Positions 462 through 41,901 of a stretch of DNA of 64,000 nucleotides are shown one piece after another. Both the position numbers and the translations under genes were made by a program. Numbering within the stretch: position 1 is the first letter of the stretch; each line of letters starts with the position of its first letter. The DNA is from a bacterium (lineage in GTDB: Bacteria; Armatimonadota; Zipacnadia; Zipacnadales; Zipacnadaceae), in NCBI GenBank assembly GCA_030602615.1, contig JAUVZM010000008.1:1322-65321 (forward strand). Reading direction: 5' to 3'. Below the pieces are notes generated by a model. That model did not search any database and was not told the origin of the DNA. It saw only the letters and a list, made by a program, of their open reading frames with translations.

Positions 462-491
462 CTCACATGAGGCAAGGGCGGCGAGGCCTGC

Positions 492-2191: not shown

Positions 2192-2382
2192 CTGGGCACG
2201 CCCTGTCCCTGGACTAACTGTGTGTCAGTGCTGCCTCGGACAGCTTCCTGCCTTTAAGGTTTCTCTGTTCCGTCCACTTTCTCCTTTGCCACCATCTAAT
2301 CATGTTGCGCAGTATCACATACCTATGCTAATATAGCTGATCGTAGGCATCCAGTCATAGTGATGTATTGGAGGCTGCGCCG

Positions 2383-3444: not shown

Positions 3445-3550
3445 GGTATGTTTTGCCATCCGCAATTGGGTTCTGCGGCGAGAGATTGACTCGTACGGGG
3501 TACACTCGTCGGTGCGGTGGAGGGAAACGGCTACGACGCCTGCTGGCGGA

Positions 3551-4795: not shown

Positions 4796-4871
4796 GGCTG
4801 CGCCTGGCCTCCTGGTAGTGGGTTAGGAGTCAATCTACACATGTCGTTTGGCCTGGAAAGTGGCGCTGCTT

Positions 4872-6131: not shown

Positions 6132-6175
6132 ATCTGCAAATCACCCGGTAACCGACTAGACCAACTAACAGCTTC

Positions 6176-6204
6176 ATTATAGCAAAAACACGAACCTGCT
6201 GCAA
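6176..6204 (-). promoter_or_regulatory. sigma70-type promoter for the CNNM gene pair
   Basis: The minus strand reads TTGCAG-N17-TATAAT, with the -35 at 6199-6204 and the -10 at 6176-6181. This is about 45 nt upstream of the 6131 start. Confidence 0.5.
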
Positions 6205-6300
6205 GCATATTGGGAAGCCGGTGCTGTGCCAGCGGCTATTGCCGGCCTGTAGGCTATTGTGCTGGATGGGCCAGGGCAACAGCGCCTCGCCGGCTCCTCA

Positions 6301-7518: not shown

Positions 7519-7566
7519 TTGACTCACCTCTATCAGCGGGTAACTACTTGGCCCACACTGCTGACA

Positions 7567-7596
7567 ATCTTACCGTTTTTTGGCCGGGGCTGTCAA
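7567..7596 (-). promoter_or_regulatory. sigma70-type promoter for pilT
   Basis: The minus strand reads TTGACA-N18-TAAGAT, with the -35 at 7591-7596 and the -10 at 7567-7572. This is about 45 nt upstream of ATG 7518. Confidence 0.45.
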
Positions 7597-7915
7597 GTCT
7601 CTCCAGCCACCCTCAATTGTTTGTTCCCTAACTGTTGTTTAGTTCCTTCATCGCAGGGGAGTTTTTTCCTGTGCCGGCGTACTCCCCCACAGCAGCCGCT
7701 TGTGGACTTGACAGAATGAGTGGGGTATGCTACGAGTTGGCACATCGTGTCACCAATCACCCAAATAAACTGTGCCGGGGAGTAGAACATCGGCCTACTC
7801 CGTCTCTTGTCGCCTTCTCGAGGGGAAGGGATATTGCCAGACTCTCGCGAAATCCCCCACTGTACTTGGTGCTTTTTACAGCAAGTTATTGGTCGTCATT
7901 ATTTAGGAGGCAAAG

Positions 7916-9331: not shown

Positions 9332-9355
9332 ATCAGGCATGAGCGGTATTGGTCA

Positions 9356-9382
9356 GTAGGACAGGCGAGACGCCTGTCCTAC
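9356..9382. terminator. perfect 12-bp hairpin between convergent genes (candidate bidirectional terminator)
   Basis: GTAGGACAGGCG-aga-CGCCTGTCCTAC lies between the lpd stop (9331) and the stop of the convergent nitroreductase gene (9427). There is no clear U-tract. Confidence 0.5.
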
Positions 9383-9426
9383 CGATTAGTCTTGAGGTCT
9401 GTCGTTGTGCTGCTGTTGTGCTGTCG

Positions 9427-9942
9427 CTACTGCCCCCACTTTTCGTGGAAGACAATCTCATCCAGCGCCAGGCGCTGCTTCGGTTTGGGCTGATCTGCCG
9501 GATAGCCCAGCGGCATCAGCTCCACCACTCGAACCGCCTGCGGTATGTCCAGGATTTGCCTCGCCGCTGCCTCGTCAAAGGCGCCGACCCAGCAGGTGCC
9601 CAGGCCCTCTTCAGTGGCTTGCAGGGCGATGTGCTCCAGGGCGATAGCCACGTCAATGGGGTACGAAGCCTGCCCGCACGGCATTACCTGTTCATCAGTC
9701 TCGGCGCAGGCAGCGATCACCACCGGCGCTTGCCCGACGAAGGCCTGGCCGCTGGCTGCTTCCATCAATTGCTGGCGGGCCTGCTCGTCACGCACCACCA
9801 CAAAACGCCACTCCTGGCGGTTGCCCGCCGACGGCGCCAGGCGTGCCGCCTCCAGGACACGCTCCAGTTTCTCCGGCTCGACCGGCTGCGTGCGGTATTG
9901 CCGCACGCTGTACCGCTGCTGAATTGCTTCAAAAACATCCAT
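9427..9942 (-). CDS. nitroreductase family protein
   Basis: Motifs RYSVRQY and PSAGNRQEWRFVVV; size is typical for the family at 171 aa. It lies 1 nt downstream of the preceding methyltransferase gene. Confidence 0.8.
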   Translation of the reverse strand: MDVFEAIQQRYSVRQYRTQPVEPEKLERVLEAARLAPSAGNRQEWRFVVVRDEQARQQLMEAASGQAFVGQAPVVIAACAETDEQVMPCGQASYPIDVAIALEHIALQATEEGLGTCWVGAFDEAAARQILDIPQAVRVVELMPLGYPADQPKPKQRLALDEIVFHEKWGQ

Positions 9943-9943
9943 A

Positions 9944-10588
9944 TCAATCTACCTCCTGTGACTGTTTTTTGCATTTGAATACCCGATAGCCCCACTTGCG
10001 TGAGACGATCTCGCATTCAGAAAACATTGGCGCCATCTCGCGAAGGTGGCTCTTGGCGCCCTGGCGAGTGTGAATGACCATCCATAGGACACCGCCGGGA
10101 TGTAGCCGCTCGGCGGCATCACCTATCAACTCGTAGAGCTTCTGCTTGCCGACGCGAATCGGCGGATTGCACAGCACCACATCAAAATGCCGCTCGCCCA
10201 GTACCTGTGGCGCATCGCCAGTGAGCACCTCGACATTGCTTATTACGTTGGCCTGGGCGTTGTCGGCGGCCAGCTTAGTGGCCCGCTCGTTGATGTCCAC
10301 CAGCGTCACGCGGGCCTCTGGTCGCAGTTCGGCCGCCACCAGCCCGATTACGCCGTATCCGCAGCCCAGATCGAGAAAATCTCCCGCCTCGGGCAGCTCC
10401 ATCTTCTTGAGCAGCCGCAGCGTGCCATCGTCAAGCTGACCATGCGAGAACACACCCCGGTCGGAAGTCAGCGTCAGCTCCACGCCTCGCACCGAAATGG
10501 TGAACTGTTCGGGTTGCGACTTGGCCGCCGGCTGGGCAGTGAAGTAGTGATCGCTACCGGAGTTTGTGGTCTCTTTGTTACCATTCAT
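9944..10588 (-). CDS. class I SAM-dependent methyltransferase (RsmC/RlmG-like small-domain type)
   Basis: SAM motif I (DLGCGYGVIG) and NPPIRVG motif. ATG 10588 was chosen because the longer ORF (to 10735) would overlap thiD by about 100 nt. Confidence 0.75.
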   Translation of the reverse strand: MNGNKETTNSGSDHYFTAQPAAKSQPEQFTISVRGVELTLTSDRGVFSHGQLDDGTLRLLKKMELPEAGDFLDLGCGYGVIGLVAAELRPEARVTLVDINERATKLAADNAQANVISNVEVLTGDAPQVLGERHFDVVLCNPPIRVGKQKLYELIGDAAERLHPGGVLWMVIHTRQGAKSHLREMAPMFSECEIVSRKWGYRVFKCKKQSQEVD

Positions 10589-10628
10589 TATTGTTGGCGT
10601 GCCGTTGCTTCTCGCAGGCAGTGATGTT

Positions 10629-11441
10629 CTATCTGGCAAATGTTCCGGGATTAACCGGCCCCGGACCTTCGCCGATTGGCAAGGCTGCCTCAATCGCCTG
10701 CATCGTAAACTGTTTGGCTTGTTTGATTGCTTCAAGGCGGTCGCTCCCCTTCGCCAGGTATGCTGCTATCGCCGACGAGAAGGTGCAACCGCTACCGTGG
10801 GTCCCCGCGCTGGCTACCTTCGGCGAGGCTAATTCGCGCAAGTCATCACTTTCACTGTCATAGATAATGTCAATTGTGTTGTCGCTCAAGTGCCCGCCGG
10901 TGACGACCACCGCCCGCGGGCCCAACTCACACAGCGCTACCGCTGCCTGGCGCATCTGCTCGATACTCTCGACGGGCCGGTCCAGCAGCACGCTGGCCTC
11001 CGCCGCGTTGGGCGTGATGACCTCCGCCAGCGGGAAAAGCTGCTCAATGTAGACCGCCTCGGCCGCCTCCAGCAGCAGCCTGGCGCCCGACGTCGCCACC
11101 ATTACTGGATCCACCACCAGGTGGGGAATGTTGTGGTGCCGGATGCGGTCGGCCACCACCTCTATGATGGCAGCGTTGGCCAGCATCCCCGTCTTCGCTG
11201 CGTGACAGGGCAGGTCGGATATGATAGAATCTATCTGTGCGGCGACCAGCTCAGGCGGCAGCGGATGAGCCTGCTGGACGCCGACGGTGTTCTGGGCGGT
11301 AATCGCAGTAATCACGCAGGTCCCATATATGCCGAGGGCAGCGAAAGTCTTCAGATCAGCCTGAATGCCGGCACCGCCGCCGGAGTCCGACCCGGCAATA
11401 GTCATACTTACGGGAATGTTCGGTTGGACTCGTTCAGACAT
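10629..11441 (-). CDS. thiD: hydroxymethylpyrimidine/phosphomethylpyrimidine kinase
   Basis: IAGSDSGGGAGIQADLKT and a C-terminal GTHGSGCTFSSAI anion-hole motif. Confidence 0.9.
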   Translation of the reverse strand: MSERVQPNIPVSMTIAGSDSGGGAGIQADLKTFAALGIYGTCVITAITAQNTVGVQQAHPLPPELVAAQIDSIISDLPCHAAKTGMLANAAIIEVVADRIRHHNIPHLVVDPVMVATSGARLLLEAAEAVYIEQLFPLAEVITPNAAEASVLLDRPVESIEQMRQAAVALCELGPRAVVVTGGHLSDNTIDIIYDSESDDLRELASPKVASAGTHGSGCTFSSAIAAYLAKGSDRLEAIKQAKQFTMQAIEAALPIGEGPGPVNPGTFAR

Positions 11442-11529
11442 ATAGTTGATATCATCCCATTGAATGACTGCCTTGCATCATTACTATTCACCATATAGCA
11501 ACCTTATACCTACCTGGGAGCAGCAACTG

Positions 11530-12090
11530 ATGCGCCGCAAGCCGGCCATATTGCTCGATCGCGATGGAGTAATCAACACCGACAAGGTTGGCTGGGTGGA
11601 GAGGTGGGACGAGTTCGAGTTTTGTCCCGGTGCACTGGCGGCTATCCGCAAGCTCACTGAGGCCGGCTGGGAGGTCTATGTAATCACCAACCAGTCGGGC
11701 ATAGCCAAGGGCTTGTACTCAGAGCAGCGCCTGGTAGATATTCACTGGCGGATGATGATAGAGATACGCCGGGCTGGCGGGCGGGTGCTGGGCATCCAGT
11801 TCTGCCCCCATACTGACGAAGATGAGTGCCTGTGCCGCAAGCCGCGACTGGGGATGCTGCTCAAGACCGCCGCCAAATGGGGACTCGACCTGGGGTGCTC
11901 TTATTTCGTCGGCGATTCAGCCCGTGATATTCAGGCCGGGGCCGCCGTCGGCTGCACGACCTTCTGGGTGCAGACCCATTACAGCGATGGGCGCACCCAG
12001 CGCCAGCGCGAAGAGATGGTCATTGCGCCCGACTATGAGGTGACAGATCTAGCCAAAGCAGTGGAGATTATCATGGCAAGGAGGCCCTAA
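11530..12090 (+). CDS. gmhB: HAD-IIIA phosphatase, D-glycero-D-manno-heptose 1,7-bisphosphate phosphatase-like
   Basis: HAD motif I (DRDGVIN), ITNQSGI, a Zn-loop (CPH...C.CRKP) and VGDSARD. ATG 11530 was chosen. Confidence 0.7.
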   Translation: MRRKPAILLDRDGVINTDKVGWVERWDEFEFCPGALAAIRKLTEAGWEVYVITNQSGIAKGLYSEQRLVDIHWRMMIEIRRAGGRVLGIQFCPHTDEDECLCRKPRLGMLLKTAAKWGLDLGCSYFVGDSARDIQAGAAVGCTTFWVQTHYSDGRTQRQREEMVIAPDYEVTDLAKAVEIIMARRP

Positions 12091-13956: not shown

Positions 13957-14538
13957 ATGGACAGCCTGCACATTATCTATTGGTCAATGGCCGGAGTAGG
14001 TACGTTGGTCGTGGTGCTGTTGCTGATCCTCGGGCTTGACCACGATCTTGACTTCGGTGTTGACGCTGACGTGGATGTCGGATTTGATGCCGACGTCGCC
14101 TTTGATGCGGCTCATGACCTGGCCCTTGCTCACGAGGGACCCAGCCCACTCGGTCTTAAGACCATTATGGCCTTCGTTGGGGGCTGGGGGTGGGGCGGTC
14201 TGATCGGCCTCGATGCCCTTAAGTGGGGGGTGTTCAGCCTGCCTTTCGGAATGGCAGTCGGCCTGGCCCTCGCCGCAGTTGTCTTCTACTTCATGCGATT
14301 CCTCTATGCTCAGGAGGCTACTAGCACCGTCGGAGTGGCCCATATGATTGGGCAGGAGGGCGTGGTACTTACCACCATCCCATCCGGTGGCACTGGCGAA
14401 GTCCGCGTGAACGTGCAGGGTACGTCTCTCAAATGCCTGGCTCGTTCCGAGTCGGAAGAAGCTGTACCCGCTGGTGCGACCATTAGTGTAGTGGCAGAGG
14501 TCGGCGGAACACTGCTTGTCCGCCCGATTCGGCTATAA
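13957..14538 (+). CDS. NfeD-family membrane protein (short form, C-terminal OB fold)
   Basis: TM helices, an Asp-rich loop and a C-terminal OB-like segment (GTGEVRVNVQGTSLKCLARSE...ISVVAEVGGTLLVRP). It lies immediately upstream of a flotillin gene, as yuaF does relative to floT. Confidence 0.75.
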   Translation: MDSLHIIYWSMAGVGTLVVVLLLILGLDHDLDFGVDADVDVGFDADVAFDAAHDLALAHEGPSPLGLKTIMAFVGGWGWGGLIGLDALKWGVFSLPFGMAVGLALAAVVFYFMRFLYAQEATSTVGVAHMIGQEGVVLTTIPSGGTGEVRVNVQGTSLKCLARSESEEAVPAGATISVVAEVGGTLLVRPIRL

Positions 14539-14569
14539 AGACCGACTGACCCAGGGAGGAGGCGTAAGC

Positions 14570-16198
14570 ATGTACGAAGGAATTGGCATGCTGCCCGTTT
14601 ACATCGGCGGGGTAGTCATACTGGTCATTGCCGTCATGGCTATCGCCGCAAGCTACTACGTGAGAGTTCCCCCAAACCAGGTGGCAGTCGTCTTCGGCCG
14701 GCGATCCCGGGATGCTGAAGGCCATCTTACCGGTTTCCGGCTGGTACAGGGCGGGGGCTTCATCAACTGGCCTATCATTATCTCGGTGGAGTGGCTCTCA
14801 CTGGAGGTCATGCCCATTCCGGTCGAGACTACAGCAGCCGTCACCATTGATGGCGTACCCATACGAGTTGATACGCTGGCCAACATCAAGATCGGCTCCA
14901 TGGCGAGTTTGCAGAGGGCGGCGGCCGAGCGCTTTCTCACTATGCGCCATGAGAGCATCATAGCTCTCATCCAGCAGACGATGGAGGGCCATCTCCGTGC
15001 TATAGTTGGCACGATGACCGTTGAGGATTTAATCCAGAATCGGGCTGCCTTTTCGGCGAACCTCGTCGACCAGTCCGGCCTGGACCTCGAGACCATGGGT
15101 CTGGTCATTGACAACATGCCCATTCGGGAGATTAGTGACGAGCATGGCTACATTGATGCGCTGGGCAAGAGGCGGACCGCCGAAGTTAAGCGCGATGCCC
15201 AGATCGGTGAGGCGGAAGCGCAGCGGGATGCCGACATTCGTGCCTCGGAGGCCCTCCGGATTGGCGAGACAGCCAAGATCGAAGCTGACGTCGGCATCGC
15301 CGACGCCGACCGAGATCGGCGCGTCAAGGTAGCGCAGTTCGATGCCCAGGCTGACGGCGAGCGGGCCACGGCTGACCAGGCCGGGCCACTATCCTCCGCT
15401 CGGGCCCGGCAGGACGTGAAGCTTGAAGAGGTCAAAATCGAAGAAGTAGACCGCCAGTCCCGCATTGCCGTGCAACAGCAGGAAGCACTGCGCCGGGAAC
15501 AGGAGCTGGTTGCGACGGTCGTCAAACCAGCAGAGGCCGGGCGCGAGAAAGCAGTTATTGACGCTGAGGGCGTGCGCCGGTCGGCCATCGTGGTGGCCGA
15601 AGGGGACAAGCAGGCTGCCGTGTTGAGGGCCGAGGGACAAAGAGATGCTCGCATCGCTCAGGCTGAAGCCGACCAGACCGAACGTGAGCGGAGCGGGCTG
15701 GGTGACGGCGCCAAGTTCCAGGCGATTGGTGAGGGCGAGGCTGAAGCCATCCGCGCCAAAGGTCTGGCCGAAGGTGATGCCATCAAGGCCCGGATGCTCG
15801 CGGAAGCTGACGGCATGCAGGAGAAGGCCGCCGCCTGGAAGGAATACGGCGACGCCGCGGTCATCCAGCTCTTGCTGGAGCGGTATCCGGACATCGTCAC
15901 GGCTATGGGCGAGCCAATGCAGGCCATCGGCACCGGCCTGGCCGGAGTCGATCACATATCTATCGTGGATATCGGTGGTGGCAGTGGCGACGGACAGCCG
16001 CCCGTTGGCCGGCTCATCAACCAGATTCCCGAGCAATTCCTGAAGCTCAACGAACAGTTGAAGGCAGTCTTCGGCATCGATTTGGCCGAACTGCTGGCTC
16101 GTAGAATCGAGAGCAGTGGCTCCTCGGCAGGTGCGATGTCGCACCCCGAAGACGACTCCTCGGACACTAAGTCTGCACCCCAAGACGAGGAAGCATGA
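14570..16198 (+). CDS. flotillin-family SPFH/band-7 protein
   Basis: N-terminal TM, an SPFH domain and a long Ala/Glu/Arg-rich coiled-coil flotillin region (AEAQRDADIRASEA...). ATG 14570 is preferred because GGGAGGAGG lies 8 nt upstream. Confidence 0.85.
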   Translation: MYEGIGMLPVYIGGVVILVIAVMAIAASYYVRVPPNQVAVVFGRRSRDAEGHLTGFRLVQGGGFINWPIIISVEWLSLEVMPIPVETTAAVTIDGVPIRVDTLANIKIGSMASLQRAAAERFLTMRHESIIALIQQTMEGHLRAIVGTMTVEDLIQNRAAFSANLVDQSGLDLETMGLVIDNMPIREISDEHGYIDALGKRRTAEVKRDAQIGEAEAQRDADIRASEALRIGETAKIEADVGIADADRDRRVKVAQFDAQADGERATADQAGPLSSARARQDVKLEEVKIEEVDRQSRIAVQQQEALRREQELVATVVKPAEAGREKAVIDAEGVRRSAIVVAEGDKQAAVLRAEGQRDARIAQAEADQTERERSGLGDGAKFQAIGEGEAEAIRAKGLAEGDAIKARMLAEADGMQEKAAAWKEYGDAAVIQLLLERYPDIVTAMGEPMQAIGTGLAGVDHISIVDIGGGSGDGQPPVGRLINQIPEQFLKLNEQLKAVFGIDLAELLARRIESSGSSAGAMSHPEDDSSDTKSAPQDEEA

Positions 16199-20709: not shown

Positions 20710-20894
20710 GTACTGTCTTTCGCGCCACAGGACCATCTACATCCTGTTTGTCAACCTATGCCGGCCGAAAAGCGTATATCTGATGTAACTGGTTTTGACT
20801 GGTCTGTCGTTGTATTAAGTGACAATACTATTACTATCTATGTTCGGGCAGGAAAAGGGGCCATAACCCTCGGAATACTCGAATCAAGGAGCCG

Positions 20895-22292
20895 ATGATG
20901 CGAATCATATTGTCGATTATTGCGCTACTATTCGCAATTGCTATTATGATAGGGCCAACAAGTGTGTCTGTCTGCGGCGCTGATGAGGCAGCGGTAGAGC
21001 CGCCACCGGCGGCGGTGGCTGAAGAAGCTGCGGCTGAGGCAGACAGTGAATCCTCAGAGGCTGACGACGAGGAAGGCGAAGCTGAGGACGAAAACGGCGA
21101 GGAAGAAGAGGAGGAAGAAGAGGAGAAGATACTGGAGATCGAGCCGGCCCCGCATGGCTGGACGGTGTACGCTGTTAATATCAATGCCCACGAACTACTC
21201 ACTACCTTCGCTGCTGATGCTCACCTGCCGCTGATCGTTGATGACACGGTCAAGCGCAATCTGACCATCAATGTGGTGGACAAGCCGGCACGAGAGGTGC
21301 TGCAGGTTATTGTTGACGCCTACGGTTTTTCGTGGGCGGAGGTGGAGGGTGTGCATATTATCTCAGAAGGCATGCCGCGTACTCCTTCGTCCTATCTGCT
21401 TTCGGATATTGCCTCCGTCACCACTAAGTACGTTTCGCCGGCCCAGGCCAAGCAGCTTTTCCCATTGTTTCTGCAGGGTAACATCAAGGTGAACACGGAC
21501 CAGAACGCCGTAGTGCTCTCCGGCCCTCAGGCGGTGCTCGATAAGTTCCGGCAGGACGTGGAGCAGTTCGACGTGCCTGCTGCCCAGATCATGCTGGATG
21601 TCAATGTGGTTGAATTCACGGATATGGATACGGACACCTTCGCGGCTATGTTAGGATACAGCAATGCCAATTTGGGCTTGACCACTGACTCGCTGACGGG
21701 CCAACTAACGCTCAACGCGATAGTGGACCTGCCTACTATGTTCTTCTCCCAGCTACAAGCCCTGGTCGAAAAGCGCCAAGCTCGAGTGCGAGCCAACCCG
21801 CGCATCGCGACCGTGAGCGGGCAGAGGGCCACGATCTTCATCGGCCAGGAGCAGTACCTGACGACACGAGTGGGCTCCTCGGGCAACTCTATCGAGGCCG
21901 GTGTCCGCCTCAGCATGACTCCCCTGACCGGAGGAGCTGGGGAGATTATTCTGGACATTAACCAAGAAATAAGCACGCTCAGCGCTCCGGATGCCGTCAC
22001 CGGGCTTCCTACCAAGACCACGCGGACGGCCCGCACCACGGTGCGAGTGCGTGACGGTCAGACGATTGTGACCGGAGGCCTGCGCCAGACTGAGAGCAGG
22101 TCGGTGCGCCGGGCTATTCCGATATTGAGTGAGATTCCGGTGATCGGCAACTTATTCCGCTCGAAGAAGACCGAGAAAACCACAGTAGATCTGGCCATAT
22201 TCATAACCGCTCGATCGCTAAGCCCGACCGGGCATCTGCCAGCTGAGGAAGAGACGCAGATCCGAGAGCGTTTTGGGATAGAGGAGCAATGA
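20895..22292 (+). CDS. secretin-family outer-membrane channel protein, paralog 1 (acidic linker + STN/N0-like + secretin_N + secretin)
   Basis: Signal-like N-terminus, an STN-like module (LTINVVDKPAREVLQVIVDAYGFSW) and an N1-type module (VTTKYVSPAQAKQLFPLF...NAVVLSGPQ). Secretin core: RANPRIATVSGQRATIFIG, VRDGQTIVTGGL, AIPILSEIPVIGNLFRS. The SD AAGGAG is at 20886-20891, and the second ATG at 20898 is equally possible. Confidence 0.8.
   Translation: MMRIILSIIALLFAIAIMIGPTSVSVCGADEAAVEPPPAAVAEEAAAEADSESSEADDEEGEAEDENGEEEEEEEEEKILEIEPAPHGWTVYAVNINAHELLTTFAADAHLPLIVDDTVKRNLTINVVDKPAREVLQVIVDAYGFSWAEVEGVHIISEGMPRTPSSYLLSDIASVTTKYVSPAQAKQLFPLFLQGNIKVNTDQNAVVLSGPQAVLDKFRQDVEQFDVPAAQIMLDVNVVEFTDMDTDTFAAMLGYSNANLGLTTDSLTGQLTLNAIVDLPTMFFSQLQALVEKRQARVRANPRIATVSGQRATIFIGQEQYLTTRVGSSGNSIEAGVRLSMTPLTGGAGEIILDINQEISTLSAPDAVTGLPTKTTRTARTTVRVRDGQTIVTGGLRQTESRSVRRAIPILSEIPVIGNLFRSKKTEKTTVDLAIFITARSLSPTGHLPAEEETQIRERFGIEEQ
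21099..21128 (+). repeat. GAR codon run (Glu9-Lys) inside the acidic linker of secretin paralog 1
   Basis: The sequence gaggaagaagaggaggaagaagaggagaag is seen directly. It is part of a roughly 50-aa Asp/Glu/Ala-rich segment at 20979-21128. Confidence 0.6.
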
Positions 22293-23995
22293 TGCCGGCG
22301 AGACAGTTGACACTACTTATGCTAGTTGCCTTGGTCCTACTCGCGCCGGCCGTCGTCTTCGGTCAGCGGGAGGACTTTGTCGAGCTTGAGAAGATCGAGG
22401 TGGAGGAGGTCTCTAACGCAGTGCGCCTGCGTCTTACCGCCGACGGCGTCCTGCAGGTCAATGCCAGCACCTACTGGGCCTATGGTCGGACTCTTTGGGG
22501 GCTTCTCTCTGGGGTCGGGGATGAGCCTGAGGCTGGCCCTGACCGGCGTATTAGCTTTATGCTGCCCAACGTTCGCAGCGGTGCGGCGCCGGCGGTGCAG
22601 GTGGCGAAGTATCCGGTGAGCCATCTGGAGTTTTCCTTAGTGCCGTTGGGGCAGGACAGCCTGCTTATCTGTACCTTGGTTCTGTACCGGCCCGGCTACC
22701 TGACGGTCGTTCAAACAGGCGGGGGCATGGGCCCGGACCCCAGCCAAGAGCAAGAGTACGATGGGCCCCAGGTTATGCTTCAGACCACCAGGAAGCAAAA
22801 CGAGCTGCTTATCACCGTGCTGAGTGATCGCCCTAAGGAGCCACCGCCGGAGCGCCCGGTGGTGAAGCCGGCTGCTGCCGAATTGGAGGTAACTGGCGAG
22901 GCCGATAACCTAAGCATACATGCCATCAACGCGGATATGCACCTGCTGTTGGAGCGTGTATCGCGGCTGGCGCAAGTCCAGGTGTATCTGGATGACAAGG
23001 TGGACCTACAGGTCACGACCCACTTGGAAAGTGTGCCGCTGCAGCGTTTGCTGCAGACCCTGGTAGTGGGCTACGGCCTGTCCCTGCGTCGCGAAGGCGG
23101 TACATACTTCGTCAGCCTCAGCCAGGCGGAGACGGCTGTCCCCTTCTGGACCGCGGAGACGCGCTCGGTGCCGCTGCGGTACCTGCCGTGCGACGAGGCG
23201 CTGCTCCTGTTGCCCGACGTGCTGCTCTCTTATGTCCGGTCTAACGAGGAGGGCAACGCCCTGGTCATGAACGGGCCGTCGCCCCTGCTCGACCGGATCG
23301 AGCAAGACCTGCGGGTGATTGACCAACCGGCTTACCACTGTCGCCTGCGGGCGTGGGTGGTCTCCGCCCGGGACGTGGCTGAGCGTCTGCAGGAAATTAC
23401 AGGCCGGGCAAGTGGCGGTACGACTGCGTGGCAGGCCGACAGTTCTGGACAAGTTCGCATAGAGGTGGCCGAGGGGCGGGCTCACGAGTTCGTGACCAGC
23501 CTGCGCCGTCTGGCGACGCGGCGCCTGCTGCACACGGAGGCGCTGCCGGTCGTGCAGGTTAAGAATGGCCAGCGGGCCCGACTGTTCGTGGGCGAGAAGA
23601 TCTACTATTGGAAGCTGTCTGGCTACGGGTGGCAGAATATGGCTCTCGACTCAGTGGAGGCCGGCGCCGAATTGGAGATCGAGCCGCTCACGGCTGGAGA
23701 TTGGATCACCGCCACTGTCAAGGTCAACAGCAGCTTCCTGGGGGAAACCAACGACCTCGGGCCGCTAGTGTTTCGCCGCGCGGCCGAGGGGATGGTGCGG
23801 CTGCGGTCCGGCGATACGATAATCATAGGCGGCTTGCGTCTGGTCGAGAGGAGCAAGGAGCGGCGTAAGACCGCAATGCTGTTGGAGGGACGCTACAGCT
23901 ACGAAGAGGAGCAAGAGGTCTGTGTACTGCTGCAGGCGCGGGCCAGCCGGGCGCCGCTGAAATACCAGGACAATGCAATGGAGGTTGTACCATGA
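22289..23995 (+). CDS. secretin-like protein, paralog 2 (AMIN-like + STN-like + secretin_N + degenerate secretin domain)
   Basis: ATGA overlap with paralog 1 and a signal-like N-terminus. STN-like module (QVTTHLESVPLQRLLQTLVVGYGLSL), N1-type module (VPLRYLPCDEALLLLPD...NALVMNGPS) and secretin-like segments (VVQVKNGQRARLFVGE, LRSGDTIIIGGL). It lacks the IPxL..IPxxGxLF segment. Confidence 0.7.
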   Translation: MMPARQLTLLMLVALVLLAPAVVFGQREDFVELEKIEVEEVSNAVRLRLTADGVLQVNASTYWAYGRTLWGLLSGVGDEPEAGPDRRISFMLPNVRSGAAPAVQVAKYPVSHLEFSLVPLGQDSLLICTLVLYRPGYLTVVQTGGGMGPDPSQEQEYDGPQVMLQTTRKQNELLITVLSDRPKEPPPERPVVKPAAAELEVTGEADNLSIHAINADMHLLLERVSRLAQVQVYLDDKVDLQVTTHLESVPLQRLLQTLVVGYGLSLRREGGTYFVSLSQAETAVPFWTAETRSVPLRYLPCDEALLLLPDVLLSYVRSNEEGNALVMNGPSPLLDRIEQDLRVIDQPAYHCRLRAWVVSARDVAERLQEITGRASGGTTAWQADSSGQVRIEVAEGRAHEFVTSLRRLATRRLLHTEALPVVQVKNGQRARLFVGEKIYYWKLSGYGWQNMALDSVEAGAELEIEPLTAGDWITATVKVNSSFLGETNDLGPLVFRRAAEGMVRLRSGDTIIIGGLRLVERSKERRKTAMLLEGRYSYEEEQEVCVLLQARASRAPLKYQDNAMEVVP

Positions 23996-25722
23996 AATGC
24001 ACACTGCTGGCGAAGTTAGCCATTCTAGGAGCGCTATCTCTGGGTCTAGGCGTGGGGTTTGCGGTCCGGGCCCACGCCCAAGGAGACGCATATTGCTACA
24101 TTAACGAAGTCAAAACCACCGTGATGAGCAACGGTGTCCAGATTCAGGTGAAGGCCGACGGTATTCTGACTTTGGACCGGGACACCCAACGCATGTGGGG
24201 GTATGGTCGAAGCGTGACCGAGGCTACATTCCGTTTTCCCGATGCTCGTTTGAACATGGATAAAACGCTTTACAATGTTGAGGAGGATCCAGTCAGCACC
24301 ATCAGCCTGTATGTGCCGCAGGACGCAGTTGACGGGAAGGGCGTGGCAATGACGGTGACCATGACCGAGCGCTCCCGGGTGAAGGCGGAACTCAGCGAGG
24401 ACCGACAGACCTATCTGGTGACGGTCTACGGCAGCCGCACGGTGGAGCGAATCGTGGGAGAGACAGAAGCCAAGGAGGTTAAGGAGGGCGAGATCCAAGT
24501 CACCGCCGTCGAGGGTCTGATCAGCGTGCACGCGGTCAAGGCGGACATCCACAAGGTGGTCGGGCAAATCGCGCGCGAGGGCGAGATCAGTGTAGCGGTA
24601 GATGATGCGGTGCAGCACAAGGTCAGCGTCAACGTTCAGGATCGAGAGCCGCTGGCAGTATTGCGGGGTATTGCTGCCGGTTACGGTCTGGCCCTGTCGG
24701 CGGTCGGAGACGTCTACATGCTCAGCGAGGGGGTGCCGGCGGACTTGCCTACCTACCTCCGCAGTGGCACGGCCTCCTTCCCGATGCGCTATCTGAAAGC
24801 CAGCGACGCCCCCTCGCTGCTGCCCACCTTTCTTTTTCAGTATGTCCACGACAATCCTGAGCAGAACGCTGTAGTGGTGACCGCGCCCTCTCAAATGCTG
24901 GCCAAAATAAAGGAAGACCTAGAAGCGGTGGACATTCCCCCGCCGATGATCATGGTGGAGTGCGCGGTCATCGAGTTGACGGACTCGGCTGACCTGGATT
25001 ACCAGTTCCGCTGGCGCTACGATAGTGAGAACTACGGTGCAGGCACCGACAGCCGCACCGGGGAAATTGATTTCGAGCACGGGGATTTCGATGCTCTGGC
25101 CACCGCGGTAGCACCCACCGCCCAGTTGCAAGCGTGGCTGCAAGAGTTGATAACTGAGGGCCGGGCGGAAGTTCGCTCCCACCCCTCCATAGCCGCGGTC
25201 AATGGCAAACAGGCGTCCATTTTCGTCGGCTCGGAACGTTACATAAAGGTGCAGTATTCGCAGTCAGGATACGAGCAGGAGCGGATCGAAGTGGTGCCGG
25301 TGGGGGTAAAGCTCAGCGTACGTCCCTGGACCGGCGGCAATCAGGAGATCACTACTTACGTGAACGTGGAGGTTTCCAATATCGTGGAGCTGGACCCGGA
25401 GACCGGAGTACCACGCCTCAGCTCCCGGTCAGCCGCCACAACCTTACGCACGCGCGACGGTGAGACCATCGTTATCGGCGGCCTCACGCAAAAGCAGCAG
25501 GAAAAGACCTACCGGCGCATCCCCATACTGGGTAGCCTGCCCATCATCGGTCCCCTGTTTCGCAGCCGGTCGCAACGCGCCAGCACTACGGAACTGGTCA
25601 TTCTGGTCCGGCCCCGACTGCTGGACGAAAGTGGCCGCCTGCCGGCCCAGGAGGATGAGCAGATGCGCCGGCAGTTTCTACAGCCGGGCGACCTGGGATA
25701 TCTTGAGGAGGCCGCGCAATAG
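23992..25722 (+). CDS. secretin-family outer-membrane channel protein, paralog 3 (AMIN-like + STN-like + secretin_N + secretin)
   Basis: ATGA overlap with paralog 2 and an SD GGAGG 7 nt upstream. STN-like module (VSVNVQDREPLAVLRGIAAGYGLAL) and N1-type module (FPMRYLKASDAPSLLPT...NAVVVTAPS). Secretin core: RSHPSIAAVNGKQASIFVG, TRDGETIVIGGL, RIPILGSLPIIGPLFRS. Confidence 0.8.
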   Translation: MKCTLLAKLAILGALSLGLGVGFAVRAHAQGDAYCYINEVKTTVMSNGVQIQVKADGILTLDRDTQRMWGYGRSVTEATFRFPDARLNMDKTLYNVEEDPVSTISLYVPQDAVDGKGVAMTVTMTERSRVKAELSEDRQTYLVTVYGSRTVERIVGETEAKEVKEGEIQVTAVEGLISVHAVKADIHKVVGQIAREGEISVAVDDAVQHKVSVNVQDREPLAVLRGIAAGYGLALSAVGDVYMLSEGVPADLPTYLRSGTASFPMRYLKASDAPSLLPTFLFQYVHDNPEQNAVVVTAPSQMLAKIKEDLEAVDIPPPMIMVECAVIELTDSADLDYQFRWRYDSENYGAGTDSRTGEIDFEHGDFDALATAVAPTAQLQAWLQELITEGRAEVRSHPSIAAVNGKQASIFVGSERYIKVQYSQSGYEQERIEVVPVGVKLSVRPWTGGNQEITTYVNVEVSNIVELDPETGVPRLSSRSAATTLRTRDGETIVIGGLTQKQQEKTYRRIPILGSLPIIGPLFRSRSQRASTTELVILVRPRLLDESGRLPAQEDEQMRRQFLQPGDLGYLEEAAQ

Positions 25723-25793: not shown

Positions 25794-27302
25794 TCAGGTC
25801 AATTCCAGCTTCGTCGTGGGCGAGCCGGAGCTTGGCTGGTGCTTGGGCAGTACAGAGCGGAAAACGCTGCCCTCGCCCAGCTCGCTTTCAATCTCCACTT
25901 GGCCGCCGTGAGCCTCGGTGACGCGGCGCACATATACCATACCCAGGCCGATTCCCCCAGCCTGATCTTTGGACGCGCTGGTGCGGAAGCCGGGTTCCTT
26001 GCCGATGCGCTCGATATCTTCCGGGGGGATACCTATACCTTCATCCCTGACTTCCATAGCTACTTCGCCGTCCTGATCCTCGATGCTCACTGTGATGGTC
26101 GTACCCGGATTGGAGTATTTGGCGGCATTCTTCAGATAGTTATCCAGGATTGACATGATCTTGTCCCGATCACCCTCTATTGTCAGGGCTTCTGGGGCCT
26201 GGCGGAGGAGCTGGTGGCCGGCCAATTTGTCGGCCAGCTCCAGGAGGATCTGGTCAAGGGCCTCGATGAGGTCGAACTCGGTGACGTCCAGCTCAATTTC
26301 TTTGCCCGCGTGGATGCGGGAGATATTAAGCGTCTCGGATATCAGACGGAACATACGGGATGATTGGATGATGGCAGTTCCGATGAACTCGTCGGCTACT
26401 TGCAGATCTTCTGCAGTGACCTCCTCGCCCATGATAGCCTCGATGGTCTGGAGGTTGCCCTGGATCACGGTTAGAGGTGTGCGCAACTCATGAGCGACTT
26501 GCCCGACCAGTTCCTCAGCAGCCGTAGAAAAGGGAGACCGGGTGAATGCAAGAATGGACTGGCCTTCGCGGGTAAGTTGGGCGCTGGCAGCGTAGGTCTC
26601 GCCCAATGGGCTGACGAATGAGGCAGTGGCTTGGCTCTGTGCTCCTGGCTGCAGTTGGGAGATCAATTCCCGCAACTGCCCTCGGGAGTCAACCTGGCTG
26701 AGGGGCTTGCCCTGCAGCACATTGACCTGGAGGACCTGGCGGGCGGCGGCATTGGCCACTATAATGCTCTCCTCAGTGTCAATCAATATCAAGCCGACCG
26801 GAACGGTGGCAAAGGCAGTCTGGATGTCTTCGAACTCTTCGAGATGTGCCTCGACCAGCAGGGCAGCCGCCTGCTGGGCGAGCGTCCCGGCCAATTGCTG
26901 GTCCTCATCGTCGAAGGTTGGCCTCCCGCGCTTGCCCCAGAGAGTGAGGATGCCCACTGGGTGTTTGACTGGCTCCTCTTCTGGTTCGAGTGCCTCGCGC
27001 TCCCAGATAACAGGGACGACCATTACTGGGCCGCCCAGCTCTATATCCGATAAGTGGATCGGCTCATCAAGTATGATGCATCTGTCTGACTCTATGGCGT
27101 CGACTACGGCTCTGGTAAGATGGGTGTTATTGTCAATGTCAACCTGGGGGCCTAGTTCCGGGACGGCTCTTTGCGAGAGGTCCACAAATGACTGCAAGTA
27201 TAAGCGGTTATCGGCTGCGCCCAGTGTGAAGCAGGCAGTGCCTTCACTTTGTATAATCTGGCTGACCTTTTGACAGAAGCGATCAAGTATGGCAGAGGCC
27301 AC
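25794..27302 (-). CDS. cytoplasmic sensor histidine kinase (GAF-like + PAS-like + HisKA + HATPase_c)
   Basis: H-box (AHELRTPLTVIQGN), N-box (LDNYLKNAAKY) and G-boxes (RDEGIGI, GIGLGMVY). No TM helix is present and there is no adjacent response regulator. Confidence 0.85.
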   Translation of the reverse strand: MASAILDRFCQKVSQIIQSEGTACFTLGAADNRLYLQSFVDLSQRAVPELGPQVDIDNNTHLTRAVVDAIESDRCIILDEPIHLSDIELGGPVMVVPVIWEREALEPEEEPVKHPVGILTLWGKRGRPTFDDEDQQLAGTLAQQAAALLVEAHLEEFEDIQTAFATVPVGLILIDTEESIIVANAAARQVLQVNVLQGKPLSQVDSRGQLRELISQLQPGAQSQATASFVSPLGETYAASAQLTREGQSILAFTRSPFSTAAEELVGQVAHELRTPLTVIQGNLQTIEAIMGEEVTAEDLQVADEFIGTAIIQSSRMFRLISETLNISRIHAGKEIELDVTEFDLIEALDQILLELADKLAGHQLLRQAPEALTIEGDRDKIMSILDNYLKNAAKYSNPGTTITVSIEDQDGEVAMEVRDEGIGIPPEDIERIGKEPGFRTSASKDQAGGIGLGMVYVRRVTEAHGGQVEIESELGEGSVFRSVLPKHQPSSGSPTTKLELT

Positions 27303-27874: not shown

Positions 27875-29002
27875 GTGACAAGCTATCTCACAAACAGGCT
27901 AAGCAAGCTTCGAAAGTTCCTGCGCGTTGGTGGCTGGCAAATCCTATGCAGTCCGCGTGTGATTGCAAATTACTTTTTGAACCAGCGAGAGCAACGCGCC
28001 AAGGCCGTGGTGATGAAGTCTCTGCCCTCGAAAGTGGAGATAGAAATTAGCGGAAAGTGCAATCTGCGTTGTCGCCATTGCCTTCGTTCGTACAGCCACT
28101 ATCCCAGGCCCCAAGAATTTATCACGCTGGCTAACTTCGAAGCTATTGTGAAGCAATTGCCCTATACAGTGACCCTGACATTAACGGGAGCGGGAGAGCC
28201 GTTACTTCATCCTGATTTCCTGAAGATAGTGCACAGGGCGCGCCAGCTCCTACCGCATCTCAACATCGTTGTCTACACGAACTTTACTCTGATCGGCAAA
28301 GCTGTCACTGCACACGAACTTGTCCGCAGTGGCGTAAGTCAGATTCACGTTTCTCTTGATGCTGCTAGTGCCGACGTCTATCGCCAGGTACGCGGGGCAG
28401 ACGCCTGGGACCACATAGTTGAAGGGATTAAGAAGCTACTGGAAGCACGAAGTCAACTTGGTGCCCGCCGGCCGCTCGTTGGGACCAATTTCACCATGAT
28501 GCGGGATAACTTCCACCAAGCTTCTATGTATGTGCAGCTTGCCCATGAGCTGGGCGTTGACTATATTGCCCGGCCGTCCTTGTTAATGACAAGCTGGGGT
28601 TACTCCAGTGGCGCTGCGGGTATGACTAAATCTGCCCTCTGCGAGGTCATGCATGAGACCCGCAGTATAGCTCAAAAGCTAGGAGCGCCAATGCCGGTGG
28701 AGGCTTATGTAGCGGATCCAGATGGCTGGTTTTCTCACTACGAAGAATTGCGCGCCAACTATTTTGAGAGCTGTATGTTCTTCCGAAATCAGATCCAGAT
28801 TGATGCCGCGGGTAACTTCCGTCTTTGCTGCCGCCACCCTGGCTCCTCACATACTTATGGCAATGTGCTGGAGAAGCCGTTCAGCGAATTGTGGAATGGT
28901 CCGGTGATGATAGCCGCCCGTCGACGCCAGGTGGCTGGTGAGGTACCGCTGCCGCCTTGTGGGGAGGTCTGCGTCGTCCCGGATCCACCGCTTGCGCCCT
29001 GA
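27875..29002 (+). CDS. radical SAM protein with C-terminal SPASM/twitch-like Cys cluster
   Basis: CX3CX2C motif (GKCNLRCRHC), GAGEPLL and C-terminal cysteines (ESCMFF, RLCCRH, PPCGEVC). The start is GTG at 27875; the alternative ATG (MKSLPSK) lies 46 codons downstream. Confidence 0.8.
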   Translation: MTSYLTNRLSKLRKFLRVGGWQILCSPRVIANYFLNQREQRAKAVVMKSLPSKVEIEISGKCNLRCRHCLRSYSHYPRPQEFITLANFEAIVKQLPYTVTLTLTGAGEPLLHPDFLKIVHRARQLLPHLNIVVYTNFTLIGKAVTAHELVRSGVSQIHVSLDAASADVYRQVRGADAWDHIVEGIKKLLEARSQLGARRPLVGTNFTMMRDNFHQASMYVQLAHELGVDYIARPSLLMTSWGYSSGAAGMTKSALCEVMHETRSIAQKLGAPMPVEAYVADPDGWFSHYEELRANYFESCMFFRNQIQIDAAGNFRLCCRHPGSSHTYGNVLEKPFSELWNGPVMIAARRRQVAGEVPLPPCGEVCVVPDPPLAP

Positions 29003-33755: not shown

Positions 33756-34574
33756 CTACCCGAGTGACGGAGGCGGTTCGTTAGCCGGTGGGCTCTGCTC
33801 TTCTTCTGACCCGGCCTGCGGCAGGAAAGCCTGTGTGATCCGCTCGACGGCGCTAAACATCTCCAGCGGTAGCGGGAAGACGACGGTAGAGGCCTTCTCT
33901 GTGGAGATTTCAACCACCGTCTGCAGGAAGCGCAACTGCAGGGCCGGCGGGTGGGCACCGATGATGTCGGCGGCATCGGAGAGGCGCTGGGAGGCCTGGA
34001 ACTCGCCTTCGGCGGCGATGACCTTGGCACGACGTTCCCGTTCGGCTTCGGCCTGGCGGGCGATGGCCCGGCGCATCTCGTCGGGCAGCTCGACGTCCTT
34101 GACCTCGACAGCGGTCACCTTGATACCCCACGGATCAGTGTGGCCATCAATAATCTTCTGCAGGGTGTTATTGATCTTGTCGCGCTCGGCCAGCATCTCG
34201 TCAAGCTCTGATTGGCCGATGACCGCGCGCATGGTGGTCTGAGCGATCTGGCTGGTGGCCCGCAGGAAGTCCTGGATTTGCACTATAGCGTCCACGGGGT
34301 CGTAGACGCGGAAATACAGGACCGCGTTGACGCTGATGGTCACGTTATCGCGGGTGATAACCTCCTGGCGAGGTATATCCAGGGTAACGATACGCAGCTC
34401 CACCTTGACCATCTGCTCGATGATCGGCCACACGTAGAAGATCCCGGGCCCGCGGGCCCCCACCAGCCGGCCCAGGCGGAAGATCACCGCACGCTCATAC
34501 TCCCGCACTACCTTGATATCGCCTAGCAGTATCAAGAACGCAACTACCCCCACGCTAATCAGAAATGTTCCCAT
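33756..34574 (-). CDS. stomatin-like SPFH/band-7 protein
   Basis: N-terminal [33 protein letters not shown] and an [12 protein letters not shown] coiled coil. ATG 34574 has AAGGAG 8 nt upstream. Confidence 0.85.
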
Positions 34575-34640
34575 CTGCCTCACTCCTTCGCCGGAATTTG
34601 GTTTAACCCGGGCAGCGCCGACTCTGCCAGGGATGGTACA

Positions 34641-35960
34641 CTACTCTTTGCGCTTGACCTTCAGGCGCATATGGGCCAGCTCCTCAGTGACAATAATCTC
34701 TTCGCCGGCCTCAATCGGTTCTCCTTCGCAGGTGGCTGACCACACTGCTCCGTCCACGTGCACCAGCCCGTCGGGATCAAGCCGCTGGCGAACCGTGCCG
34801 GTGGCGCCAGCCAACGCTCCTATGCCGATAGCGAGCGGACGTCGCTGCCCCTTGACGATAGCGCCCAAGGCCAGCAGGAAAAAGCCGCCGGTGGCGACCG
34901 CAACGCCCAGGATCAGCGGTCGCGAGATAGGCGTGGCCGGCGACTCCATTAGAATCAGTGAGCCGATTACAAAAGCAGCCAGGCCGCCGACGCCCAGCAC
35001 TCCGTAGGTGGGCGTGTACAGTTCGGCAATTAGCATCGCTACTCCCGCCACGATCAGGGCCAGCCCGGCCCAATTGAAGGACAGCACTGACAGCCCGTAC
35101 AGCCCCAGAATCAAGCAGATCAGGCCGACAACCCCTGCTCCGCCGATGCCGGGAACCTTCAGCTCGAAGATGATGCCGTAGAAGCCGATTATGAGCAGCA
35201 GATAAGCGACATTGGGATGGGCCAGTACGCTTAACAGACTCTCGCGCCAGCTCATTTCCACTGATTCGATGCGCGCGCCTGATGTCTCCAAAGTGACCTC
35301 TCCGGCTGGCGTATCGACCCTGCGGCCGGCGGCCTGCTCGGCGAATTGGTCGGCAGTTGCCGCAATGAAGTCCACCACGCTCTGTTCAACTGCTTCAGTG
35401 GCAGTGGCCGTGATGCTCTCACGCACGGCCTGCTCGGCCCACTGGGCATTGCGGCCACGCTTATCGGCCAGGCCGCGAATCTGAGCCACGGCATCGTTGA
35501 CGATTTTCTCAGTCAGCGTTTCAAGCTGCTTCGCAGCCCCCTCGCTGGGCTCACCACCAGGCATACCACCAGTCATCATCACCGGGTGAGCCGCGCCAAT
35601 GGTAGTGGAGGGCGCCATACCGCTGACGTGAGCGGCATAGACCAGGAAAGTGCCCGCCGAGGCGGCGCGGGCGCCTTCCGGCGCCACCCACATTCCTACC
35701 GGGATGGTCGAGTGCAGGATGTCGCTGGTAATCTGGCGCATCGAGATCATCTGGCCGCCGGGAGTATCAAGCTTGATAAGCACCAGGTCTGCATCGCGCC
35801 GTCGCGCCGCCTCAATGCCGCGACTGATGTAGCTGGCGGTAGCCGGATTTATATCGCTGGCTACGGTCAGTTCAATAATCAGCGGCTCGCTGTGAGCCGC
35901 CCCACTGACCGCCAGGCCAATGGTCATCACCAGCAAGAGCAGCATCCGTCGCATTTTCAT
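34641..35960 (-). CDS. NfeD-family membrane-bound serine protease (long form: ClpP-like domain + TM bundle + OB fold)
   Basis: Signal/TM segment, a ClpP-class region (LIKLDTPGG, ASAGTF), 4-5 TM helices and a C-terminal OB segment (VHVDGAVWSATCEGEPIEAGEEIIV). It lies directly upstream of the stomatin gene. Confidence 0.85.
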   Translation of the reverse strand: MKMRRMLLLLVMTIGLAVSGAAHSEPLIIELTVASDINPATASYISRGIEAARRRDADLVLIKLDTPGGQMISMRQITSDILHSTIPVGMWVAPEGARAASAGTFLVYAAHVSGMAPSTTIGAAHPVMMTGGMPGGEPSEGAAKQLETLTEKIVNDAVAQIRGLADKRGRNAQWAEQAVRESITATATEAVEQSVVDFIAATADQFAEQAAGRRVDTPAGEVTLETSGARIESVEMSWRESLLSVLAHPNVAYLLLIIGFYGIIFELKVPGIGGAGVVGLICLILGLYGLSVLSFNWAGLALIVAGVAMLIAELYTPTYGVLGVGGLAAFVIGSLILMESPATPISRPLILGVAVATGGFFLLALGAIVKGQRRPLAIGIGALAGATGTVRQRLDPDGLVHVDGAVWSATCEGEPIEAGEEIIVTEELAHMRLKVKRKE

Positions 35961-41672: not shown

Positions 41673-41901
41673 GCCCGAGCTCTCCATCCGCCAGTTTCTC
41701 TCTCGCGTCTCAACTGGGTGTGGCCATTGAACCGGGCGTGCGGAGGTGCTACAATGCGGCGTGTAGAAGGGGGGATAAGCAATGCGCAGGCGTGAATCCC
41801 TAGCTAGCATCGCCGGCGGCGCGGCCTTCGCGCTGACCGGGAGAGTGCTTAATGCCGACGACAACCGGGCGGGACCGCAGCCCGCCAAGGGAGGAGACAC
41901 T

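Follow-up and report, generated by a model that had tools for sequence, protein, structure and literature searches.

Type II and type III secretion, type IV pili, DNA uptake and the export of filamentous phages all share one kind of outer-membrane gate, the secretin, and to our knowledge all secretins characterized so far are homo-oligomers, rings built from one gene product. Why, then, would a bacterium keep three secretin genes in a row? The question is raised by a 64,000-nucleotide stretch of contig JAUVZM010000008.1 (assembly GCA_030602615.1; hereafter the window) from a member of the Zipacnadia, phylum Armatimonadota. Three genes on its plus strand, which we named S1, S2 and S3 by their position in the operon and refer to together as the triad, encode secretin paralogs: S1 (20895–22292; 465 amino acids, aa), the divergent middle paralog S2 (22289–23995; 568 aa) and S3 (23992–25722; 576 aa). 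We favor, with somewhat better than even confidence, the reading that the three proteins make up one outer-membrane secretin apparatus serving dispersed type IV filament machinery, within which S2 depends on S1 and/or S3.

The first-pass annotation of this DNA had described three same-strand open reading frames (ORFs) of these lengths, joined by ATGA stop/start overlaps at 22289–22292 and 23992–23995, each with its own Shine-Dalgarno motif and each beginning with a hydrophobic signal-like segment; all of these features were recovered in our analysis. An AAGGAG sequence resembling a Shine-Dalgarno motif, read directly from the DNA, lies at 20886–20891 (+), 3 nt from the S1 ATG at 20895 and 6 nt from a second ATG. 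The S1/S2 junction (22281–22292, +) combines a GAGGAG motif (22281–22286) with the ATGA overlap; the first ATG follows the motif after 2 nt and a second one, at 22292, after 5 nt; the latter may be the actual start of S2 and would leave a 1-nt overlap with S1. The S2/S3 junction (23980–23995, +) likewise pairs a GGAGG motif (23980–23984) with the overlap. Promoter- and terminator-like matches inside the triad of the window were no more frequent than in shuffled sequence, and scans of the window with Rfam and for tRNAs, promoters and terminators gave no informative result. The three genes are almost certainly co-expressed from one translationally coupled operon. Antisense ORFs of up to 282 aa, for example at 24046–24894 (–), also lie inside the secretin genes and look like GC-rich artefacts rather than genes.

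The Pfam scan of the three products showed them to be true secretin paralogs, as had been proposed. The Secretin family (PF00263; cutoff 27.5 bits) was matched above cutoff by S1 (6.4e-37, 127.2 bits, profile positions 1–166 of 169) and S3 (1.6e-39, 135.6 bits, 2–168 of 169), and partially by S2 (2.2e-10, 40.8 bits, 8–137 of 169). The shared core suggested earlier, an N0-like module, an N1-type module and the secretin domain, gave lower scores in its first two parts: Secretin_N was near its threshold (29.9 bits and 6.4e-07 in S1, 26.5 bits in S2 and 28.7 bits in S3; cutoff 28.2), and the Pfam scan placed STN below cutoff in S2 and S3 and did not detect it in S1. An N0 domain is nevertheless probably present in S1, judging from its alignment to S2 and S3 and from an STN match in one S1 orthologue. 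None of the NCBIfam models for GspD, PilQ, SctC, MshL or HofQ reached its cutoff for any of the three proteins.

The domain layouts were similar downstream of the N-terminal region, with periplasmic N0 and N1-type domains found upstream of the barrel. S1 consists of a signal peptide, an acidic low-complexity linker (~aa 29–78), an N0-like domain (~aa 85–165), N1 (aa 175–231), a full secretin domain with the signature motif (aa 289–440) and a C-terminal tail. The linker occupies the position of the N-terminal module of S2 and S3, as the first-pass annotation had noted, and varies in length and composition across the phylum. S2 carries a signal peptide, an AMIN-like beta module (~aa 29–180), N0 (~198–276), N1 (~290–360) and a barrel (~390–553) that lacks the signature motif and ends in a short C-terminus. 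S3 carries a signal peptide, an AMIN-like module (aa 32–148), N0 (166–246), N1 (257–331), the beta-lip and secretin barrel (336–545) with the motif at aa 510–523, and a helical C-terminal tail. AlphaFold2 (AF2) models of S2 and S3, with predicted local distance difference test (pLDDT) scores of 67.7 and 73.5, folded into an N-terminal beta module, N0, one N1-type domain and a secretin barrel. All Foldseek matches of these models at E <0.001 were secretins or secretin N-domain structures. The Foldseek matches included the N0-N1 crystal structures 4ec5, 3ezj, 3gr5 and 4ar0; the S3 model matched InvG, PilQ and GspD at 1e-19 to 1e-20. In PDB sequence searches S1 and S3 showed roughly the same similarity to GspD, PilQ and phage pIV, with S1 matching all three at 1e-17 to 1e-22. 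We also considered S1 as a lipoprotein that might pilot itself and rejected the idea: the Cys of its VSVC|G sequence is not conserved, and just 7 of 68 S1 proteins have a motif resembling a lipobox.

The AMIN-like module that had been proposed for S2 and S3 fared less evenly. Pfam AMIN was not detected in S1, S2 or S3 of the window, and a PDB profile search aimed at AMIN gave no match; in favor of the assignment, 11 of 22 orthologous S3 N-terminal modules matched Pfam AMIN weakly (best 1.7e-4) and the S2 model showed a weak Foldseek match to AmiC (4bin, E 0.059). An AMIN-like identity of the module is plausible on these family-level similarities. The module is largest in S2 (median 146 aa). 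PilQ proteins typically have AMIN domains that bind peptidoglycan (PMC10653833).

To examine how widely the arrangement is conserved, we scanned reference genomes with an S3 alignment and obtained 80 loci, which after removal of duplicates included 68 complete triads and 3 frameshifted ones. Nearly all 80 loci were labelled Armatimonadota, the remainder bearing generic or probably mis-binned labels. The triad was present in every class sampled, with carriers in the Armatimonadia, Candidatus Zipacnadia, Hebobacteria, Abditibacteriaceae, Chthonomonadales, Fimbriimonadaceae and Capsulimonas, including the cultured Abditibacterium utsteinense (LMG 29911, L091) and one metagenome-assembled genome (MAG) of Chthonomonas calidirosea. 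The survey of gene neighborhoods showed that the triad is conserved as a unit: the order S1-S2-S3 was fixed in the 68 complete triads, and 122 of their 136 junctions fell between –30 and +20 nt. Overlaps of 4 nt occurred at 49 of the 136 junctions (22 at S1/S2 and 27 at S2/S3) and overlaps of 1 nt at 17 (7 and 10, respectively). The retrieved contexts of 22 S2 homologues, down to 38% identity, and of increasingly distant S3 homologues all had the identical three-gene layout with overlapping junctions. S1 orthologues in position 1 were 58–92% identical, and protein sizes in the triads looked up were ~400–480 aa for S1, 544–635 aa for S2 and 565–587 aa for S3. Of 571 S3 homologues, all those with taxon-bearing source names came from Armatimonadota. 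The closest relatives of the window were Zipacnadia-type MAGs with 86–91% protein identity; the genes flanking the triad varied by lineage, and only the nearest relative (L004, 86–91% identical) shared the neighbors seen in the window.

A neighbor-joining tree of a 460-column alignment separated positions 1, 2 and 3 into clean splits, with solo S3-like genes falling in the third. Since each gene position forms its own clade, the triplication predates the radiation of the phylum. Loci lacking the triad despite sufficient upstream sequence numbered only four (L060, L070 and L079 from Abditibacteriaceae, and L085), and each held a solo S3-like secretin gene at ~10000–11600 with no S1 or S2. This gene lies directly downstream of accD-accA and also neighbors a gene for a Mg-chelatase-like ATPase, with no pilus genes nearby; its product is 71% identical to S3 of the triad at L066, which was one of three loci returned by a genome scan for the solo gene, and it may be an extra copy or a relocated S3. 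In the three frameshifted triads one gene is split, S3 in L010 (11683–13384) and S2 in L035 (5067–6963) and L080 (9131–10839), which could reflect assembly errors or occasional pseudogenization. Two MAGs each yielded two distinct complete triads (L023 and L041 in CBFDAZ01; L029 and L055 in CAZKUN01), which could be second copies or the result of mixed strains.

The middle gene differs from the other two. Nei-Gojobori ratios of nonsynonymous to synonymous substitution rates (dN/dS), calculated for ten pairs, were 0.07–0.23 for S1, 0.10–0.49 for S2 and 0.05–0.31 for S3. All three genes are under purifying selection; S2 exceeded both of its neighbors in 9 of the 10 pairs yet is clearly constrained. 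S2 is also the fastest-evolving member, with a mean within-group identity of 0.30 compared with 0.54 for S1 and 0.51 for S3. Of the 68 proteins at each position, 66 (S1) and 64 (S3) retained the secretin signature motif, IPxLxxIPxxGxLF, as against 13 for S2. In S3 of the window the motif reads IPILGSLPIIGPLF (25519–25560, +) and contains a short helix (520–523) flanked by two long strands in the model. Its conservation and this predicted helix suggest that the motif is the amphipathic helical loop (AHL). No region of secretins is more conserved than the AHL, for which a role in initiating outer-membrane insertion has been proposed (PMC6532946, PMC10653833). At the corresponding position of S2 (aa 520–539; 23846–23905, +) the alignments show RRKTAMLLEGRYSYEEEQE in its place, a segment modeled with pLDDT <50. 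The motif appears to have been lost from S2 repeatedly and independently, because the replacement sequences differ between lineages.

The loss extends beyond the motif. The part of a secretin that spans the membrane is the beta-lip, and in S2 its aromatic fraction is 0.049, compared with 0.095 in S1 and 0.086 in S3; it is also more charged than in the paralogs. Hydropathy at the AHL position is 0.57 in S2 versus 1.14 in S1 and 1.17 in S3, and the C-terminal tail of S2 is short compared with those of S1 and S3. These differences between S2 and its paralogs were significant across the 68 loci (paired Wilcoxon p 7e-10 to 5e-8). The N0 domain (81 aa), the N1 domain (75 aa) and the barrel segments (80 + 39 aa) of S2, on the other hand, equal those of its paralogs in length. 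S2 is a full-length secretin fold from which the membrane-contacting features have been specifically shed. The suggestion made in the first-pass annotation that the channel could be hetero-oligomeric or stacked gains strength from this loss under purifying selection.

We next compared the triad proteins with secretins of known systems. S2 and S3 resemble PilQ in domain order (an AMIN-like beta module, N0, a single N1/N3-type domain, beta-lip and barrel); examples of PilQ are those of Pseudomonas aeruginosa (6ve2) and Myxococcus xanthus (3jc8) and the competence PilQ of Vibrio cholerae (6w6m). Their models (of S2 and S3) matched PilQ in Foldseek at E 1e-12 to 1e-19. PilQ is encoded by a single gene, whereas here each operon holds three paralogs with no pilMNOP upstream and a middle paralog that lacks the signature motif. 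Scores against the PilQ model TIGR02515 were 123.0, 40.8 and 114.8 bits for S1, S2 and S3, all below the cutoff of 284.35, and no type IVa pilus gene cluster was found in the window or within ~10 kb around ~80 triads. GspD structures (5wq7, 5wq8, 6i1x) were the best PDB sequence matches of S1 and S3 (1e-20 to 1e-23), the GspD model TIGR02517 was the best NCBIfam match of S3, the helical C-terminal tail of S1 and S3 recalls the S-domain, and relatives of the triad proteins are annotated as GspD in databases. GspD, however, has a series of domains from N0 to N3, and for the triad proteins Pfam and the AF2 models of S2 and S3 show only N0 followed by a single N1-type domain; TIGR02517 scores were 124.9, 20.4 and 146.3 bits for S1, S2 and S3, below the cutoff of 351.35, and no gsp operon gene (gspC-M) was found in the window or related loci. 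Scores against the SctC model TIGR02516 (101.1, 21.5 and 108.7 bits; cutoff 238.45) were likewise too low, with no type III secretion system (T3SS) genes nearby, and the Tad secretin RcpA (8odn) was a weaker match than GspD or PilQ, with no tad genes seen. By fold and domain order, the closest known relatives are PilQ for S2 and S3 and a minimal GspD- or pIV-like form for S1.

Secretin complexes with additional ring-forming or assembly subunits encoded nearby provide precedents: PilQ-TsaP (6ve2), BfpB-BfpG (9u5s), RcpA-TadD (8odn) and GspD-pilotin (5zdh). In these cases TsaP, BfpG, TadD and the pilotins are proteins unrelated to secretins, whereas the candidate partners in the triad are themselves secretin paralogs. 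Nowhere in the literature we searched were paralogous, tandem or heteromeric secretins, or this triad, described. A further comparison is offered by the Deinococcus secretin DR_0774 (8co1), which was among the PDB and Foldseek matches and comes from a diderm Terrabacterium with a wide periplasm, like Armatimonadota. Thermus PilQ is likewise a long or stacked secretin of thick-envelope Terrabacteria. The Deinococcus and Thermus secretins are long single polypeptides with many N-domains, whereas the triad paralogs are short (N0 and N1), so that any stacking would need separate gene products. In the Armatimonadota isolate Fervidibacter sacchari the envelope is diderm and the periplasm ~55 nm wide (PMC11535203), which makes a stacked arrangement at least conceivable.

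What machine would the triad serve? When practically every ORF of 90 aa or more in the window was scanned with Pfam, no pilMNOP, pilB/C, gsp, pilin or pilotin gene was identified, in agreement with the first-pass annotation, nor any T3SS gene, and no prepilin-type N-terminus was present in any frame of the window. The immediate neighbors are, as described there, a GFO/IDH/MocA oxidoreductase gene upstream and a convergent histidine kinase gene (25794–27302) downstream. The annotation had missed a T2SSE ATPase of PilT size (6301–7527, –; 408 aa; Pfam T2SSE 1.2e-45), located 13.4 kb upstream of the triad and standing alone between CorC/CNNM transporter genes and the gene for dihydrolipoamide dehydrogenase (lpd). 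It is possible that this ATPase is part of the type IV filament machinery served by the triad. The region around it, from position 1 to 11441 (DUF6784, accA, accD, pheA, two CNNM genes, the PilT-like gene and lpd), is syntenic with a Guaymas Zipacnadia MAG (L092) at 80–90% protein identity, in keeping with the taxonomic assignment of the window.

The same picture was obtained across the phylum. The first-pass annotation had asked whether such triads ever adjoin pilMNOP or gsp genes; they never do so within ~10 kb in ~80 loci, and clustering of the neighbors at these loci revealed no gene family that recurs beside the triad. The second-largest neighbor cluster, of 17 loci, probably consists of an ORF that runs antisense within S3. 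Prepilin-type N-termini occurred near only three triads, 3–5 kb away, and clustering of small flanking ORFs showed clade-local synteny in at most five loci, with no conserved small ORF, pilotin-like ORF or lipobox. Using the PilT-like ATPase as bait, we retrieved seven Armatimonadota loci with isolated PilT genes or PilT pairs, none of them containing pilB, pilC or pilM, and with FecR, CHASE2 cyclase, RNR and gyrA genes as neighbors. In other Zipacnadia and Armatimonadia (L093–L095) the PilT-like ATPase is one of a tandem PilT pair.

Such isolation is in keeping with what is reported for the phylum. The genomes of C. calidirosea and Fimbriimonas ginsengisoli are described as "disorganized" and non-operonic, with even biosynthetic operons dispersed (PMC4959169), and the lack of machinery linked to the triad is uninformative for this reason. 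The fimbriated F. ginsengisoli encodes PilB, PilC, PilD, PilM and PilQ, six PilT proteins, 79 PulG-like pseudopilins, PulE, PulF, PulJ, PulK and PulO, and four COG1450 secretins (PMC4072686). Four secretins would equal a triad plus one; the triad of F. ginsengisoli itself was not retrieved in our scan, and Fimbriimonadaceae MAGs do have the triad. [quoted passage not shown] (PMC6668835). The non-operonic genomes, the isolated PilT loci and the PilT-like ATPase in the window leave unsupported the earlier idea that missing neighboring machinery means independence from any known machine. In genomes of this kind, moreover, retention of the triad operon implies selection for co-expression.

We propose that S1, S2 and S3 are anciently diverged paralogs, made together from one coupled operon, which would form the Armatimonadota version of a PilQ/GspD conduit and serve a type IV filament machinery (a pilus or a T2SS-like system) with genes scattered over the genome. 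S1 and S3, which keep the beta-lip, the putative AHL motif and the barrel, would be the membrane-inserting, gated pore formers. S2, retaining the N0 and N1 rings and a full-length barrel and having lost the hydrophobic elements that touch the membrane, would for that reason depend on S1 and/or S3, either interleaved with them in a mixed ring or assembled into a ring of its own in the periplasm, beneath the one embedded in the membrane. Anchoring to peptidoglycan would probably fall to the AMIN-like modules of S2 and S3. The physical co-assembly of the three proteins, the link to type IV filament machinery and the binding of peptidoglycan are inferences. A more specific form of this proposal is that the triad co-assembles as a single hetero-oligomeric secretin, for example a 15-mer of five S1-S2-S3 units or a 12-mer of four. 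Every third subunit, S2, would then lack the AHL and the hydrophobic beta-lip, which would alter the seating or gating of the channel in the outer membrane; in a variant, the paralog rings would form an obligate stack across the unusually wide periplasm. We regard this specific form as a tentative possibility, and a rather doubtful one.

Several observations weigh against the shared apparatus that we favor. The homo-oligomeric nature of characterized secretins sets a prior against a mixed ring, the solo S3-like secretin of some Abditibacteriaceae indicates that an S3-type protein may work alone, and the motif kept in 13 of 68 S2 proteins means that loss of the AHL is not obligatory for the role of S2. 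The link to type IV filaments is drawn from phylum-level gene content, not from linkage or co-occurrence statistics. The AF2 models are of only moderate confidence (pLDDT 68 and 74), and the suggested AHL identity comes from conservation and the helix in the S3 model, not from residue-level mapping to a solved structure.

Other explanations were weighed as well. The three proteins could be independent homo-oligomeric secretins for different machines, such as a pilus, a T2SS-like system and DNA uptake, with adjacency owed to tandem duplication only. Secretins as they are known form rings of one subunit, S1 and S3 both appear fully competent individually, an S3-like gene occurs alone in some loci, and several PilT paralogs and many pseudopilins are encoded in the phylum (PMC4072686). 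Yet the order and tight overlaps are kept in 68 of 68 complete loci over the entire radiation of a phylum that disperses even biosynthetic operons (PMC4959169), no member of the triad is ever found beside a machine of its own, and in most lineages the elements that contact the membrane are gone from S2, which makes an outer-membrane pore formed by S2 itself unlikely; independence of the three is, in our judgment, rather improbable. Alternatively, S1 and/or S3 could form the pores and S2 could be a non-pore accessory, a secretin-derived assembly factor or peptidoglycan-anchored scaffold, analogous in function to a pilotin, TsaP or GspAB, that would aid pore assembly while staying outside the conduit. 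The fast evolution of S2 (identity 0.30 versus 0.54 and 0.51), its missing motif and C-terminal tail, its AMIN-like module, the largest of the triad, and the lack of a conserved pilotin-like small ORF or lipobox nearby all speak for such a role. Even so, we think it unlikely, if deserving of real weight, as S2 models as a secretin barrel and keeps N0, N1 and barrel lengths exactly as in its paralogs, which exceeds the expected needs of an assembly chaperone.

The alternative offered by the first-pass annotation, a self-contained outer-membrane conduit with no tie to type IV filaments, T2SS or T3SS, draws on the consistent separation of the triad from pil and gsp genes in ~80 loci and on NCBIfam scores far under the cutoffs for GspD, PilQ and SctC. 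We consider it very unlikely: linkage is uninformative in these non-operonic genomes (PMC4959169), where the PilT loci are isolated too, and the phylum is rich in type IV filament parts and makes fimbriae (PMC4072686). All three proteins, moreover, keep N0 and N1. In known systems N0, together with N1, docks the inner-membrane platform. Decay of S2, which would reduce the triad to effectively two secretins, would explain its weak and partial Pfam match, its fast evolution and its lost motif; the reading frame is intact, however, in 68 of 71 triads, and S2 must have persisted from a time before the phylum radiated, given that position 2 forms a phylum-wide clade. The dN/dS range of 0.10–0.49 and the conserved domain lengths add to this, so that a pseudogene in the making is largely refuted and has hardly any claim to belief.

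If the shared apparatus is real, the triad would be the first natural division of labor among secretin subunits, with one member specialized away from membrane insertion, and a hetero-oligomeric secretin would be the first such case, an innovation that became fixed at the base of the Armatimonadota. The triad bears on how secretins insert into the outer membrane without the beta-barrel assembly machinery (BAM), on the contribution of the AHL and the beta-lip to insertion, and on how a channel spans the thick envelopes of Terrabacteria. The unit has gone unnoticed because databases label its members singly, as GspD, PilQ or hypothetical proteins. Cultured Armatimonadota that have the triad, or whose families have it, include Abditibacterium, Chthonomonas, Fimbriimonas and Fervidibacter.

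Several other features of the window were recorded. Two pairs of NfeD and SPFH/flotillin genes are present at 13957–16198 (+) and 33756–35960 (–). A radical SAM/SPASM-domain protein (27875–29002, +) is encoded next to the convergent histidine kinase gene and is a possible peptide maturase, for which a precursor peptide was not identified. A PEP-CTERM-tagged protein (43154–43831, +), with no recognizable exosortase encoded nearby, lies beside a 358-aa ORF (41782–42858) that has no Pfam match. At 51117–52905 (+), the gene for an extracytoplasmic function (ECF) sigma factor overlaps a 408-aa ORF without a Pfam match, which is a candidate anti-sigma factor.

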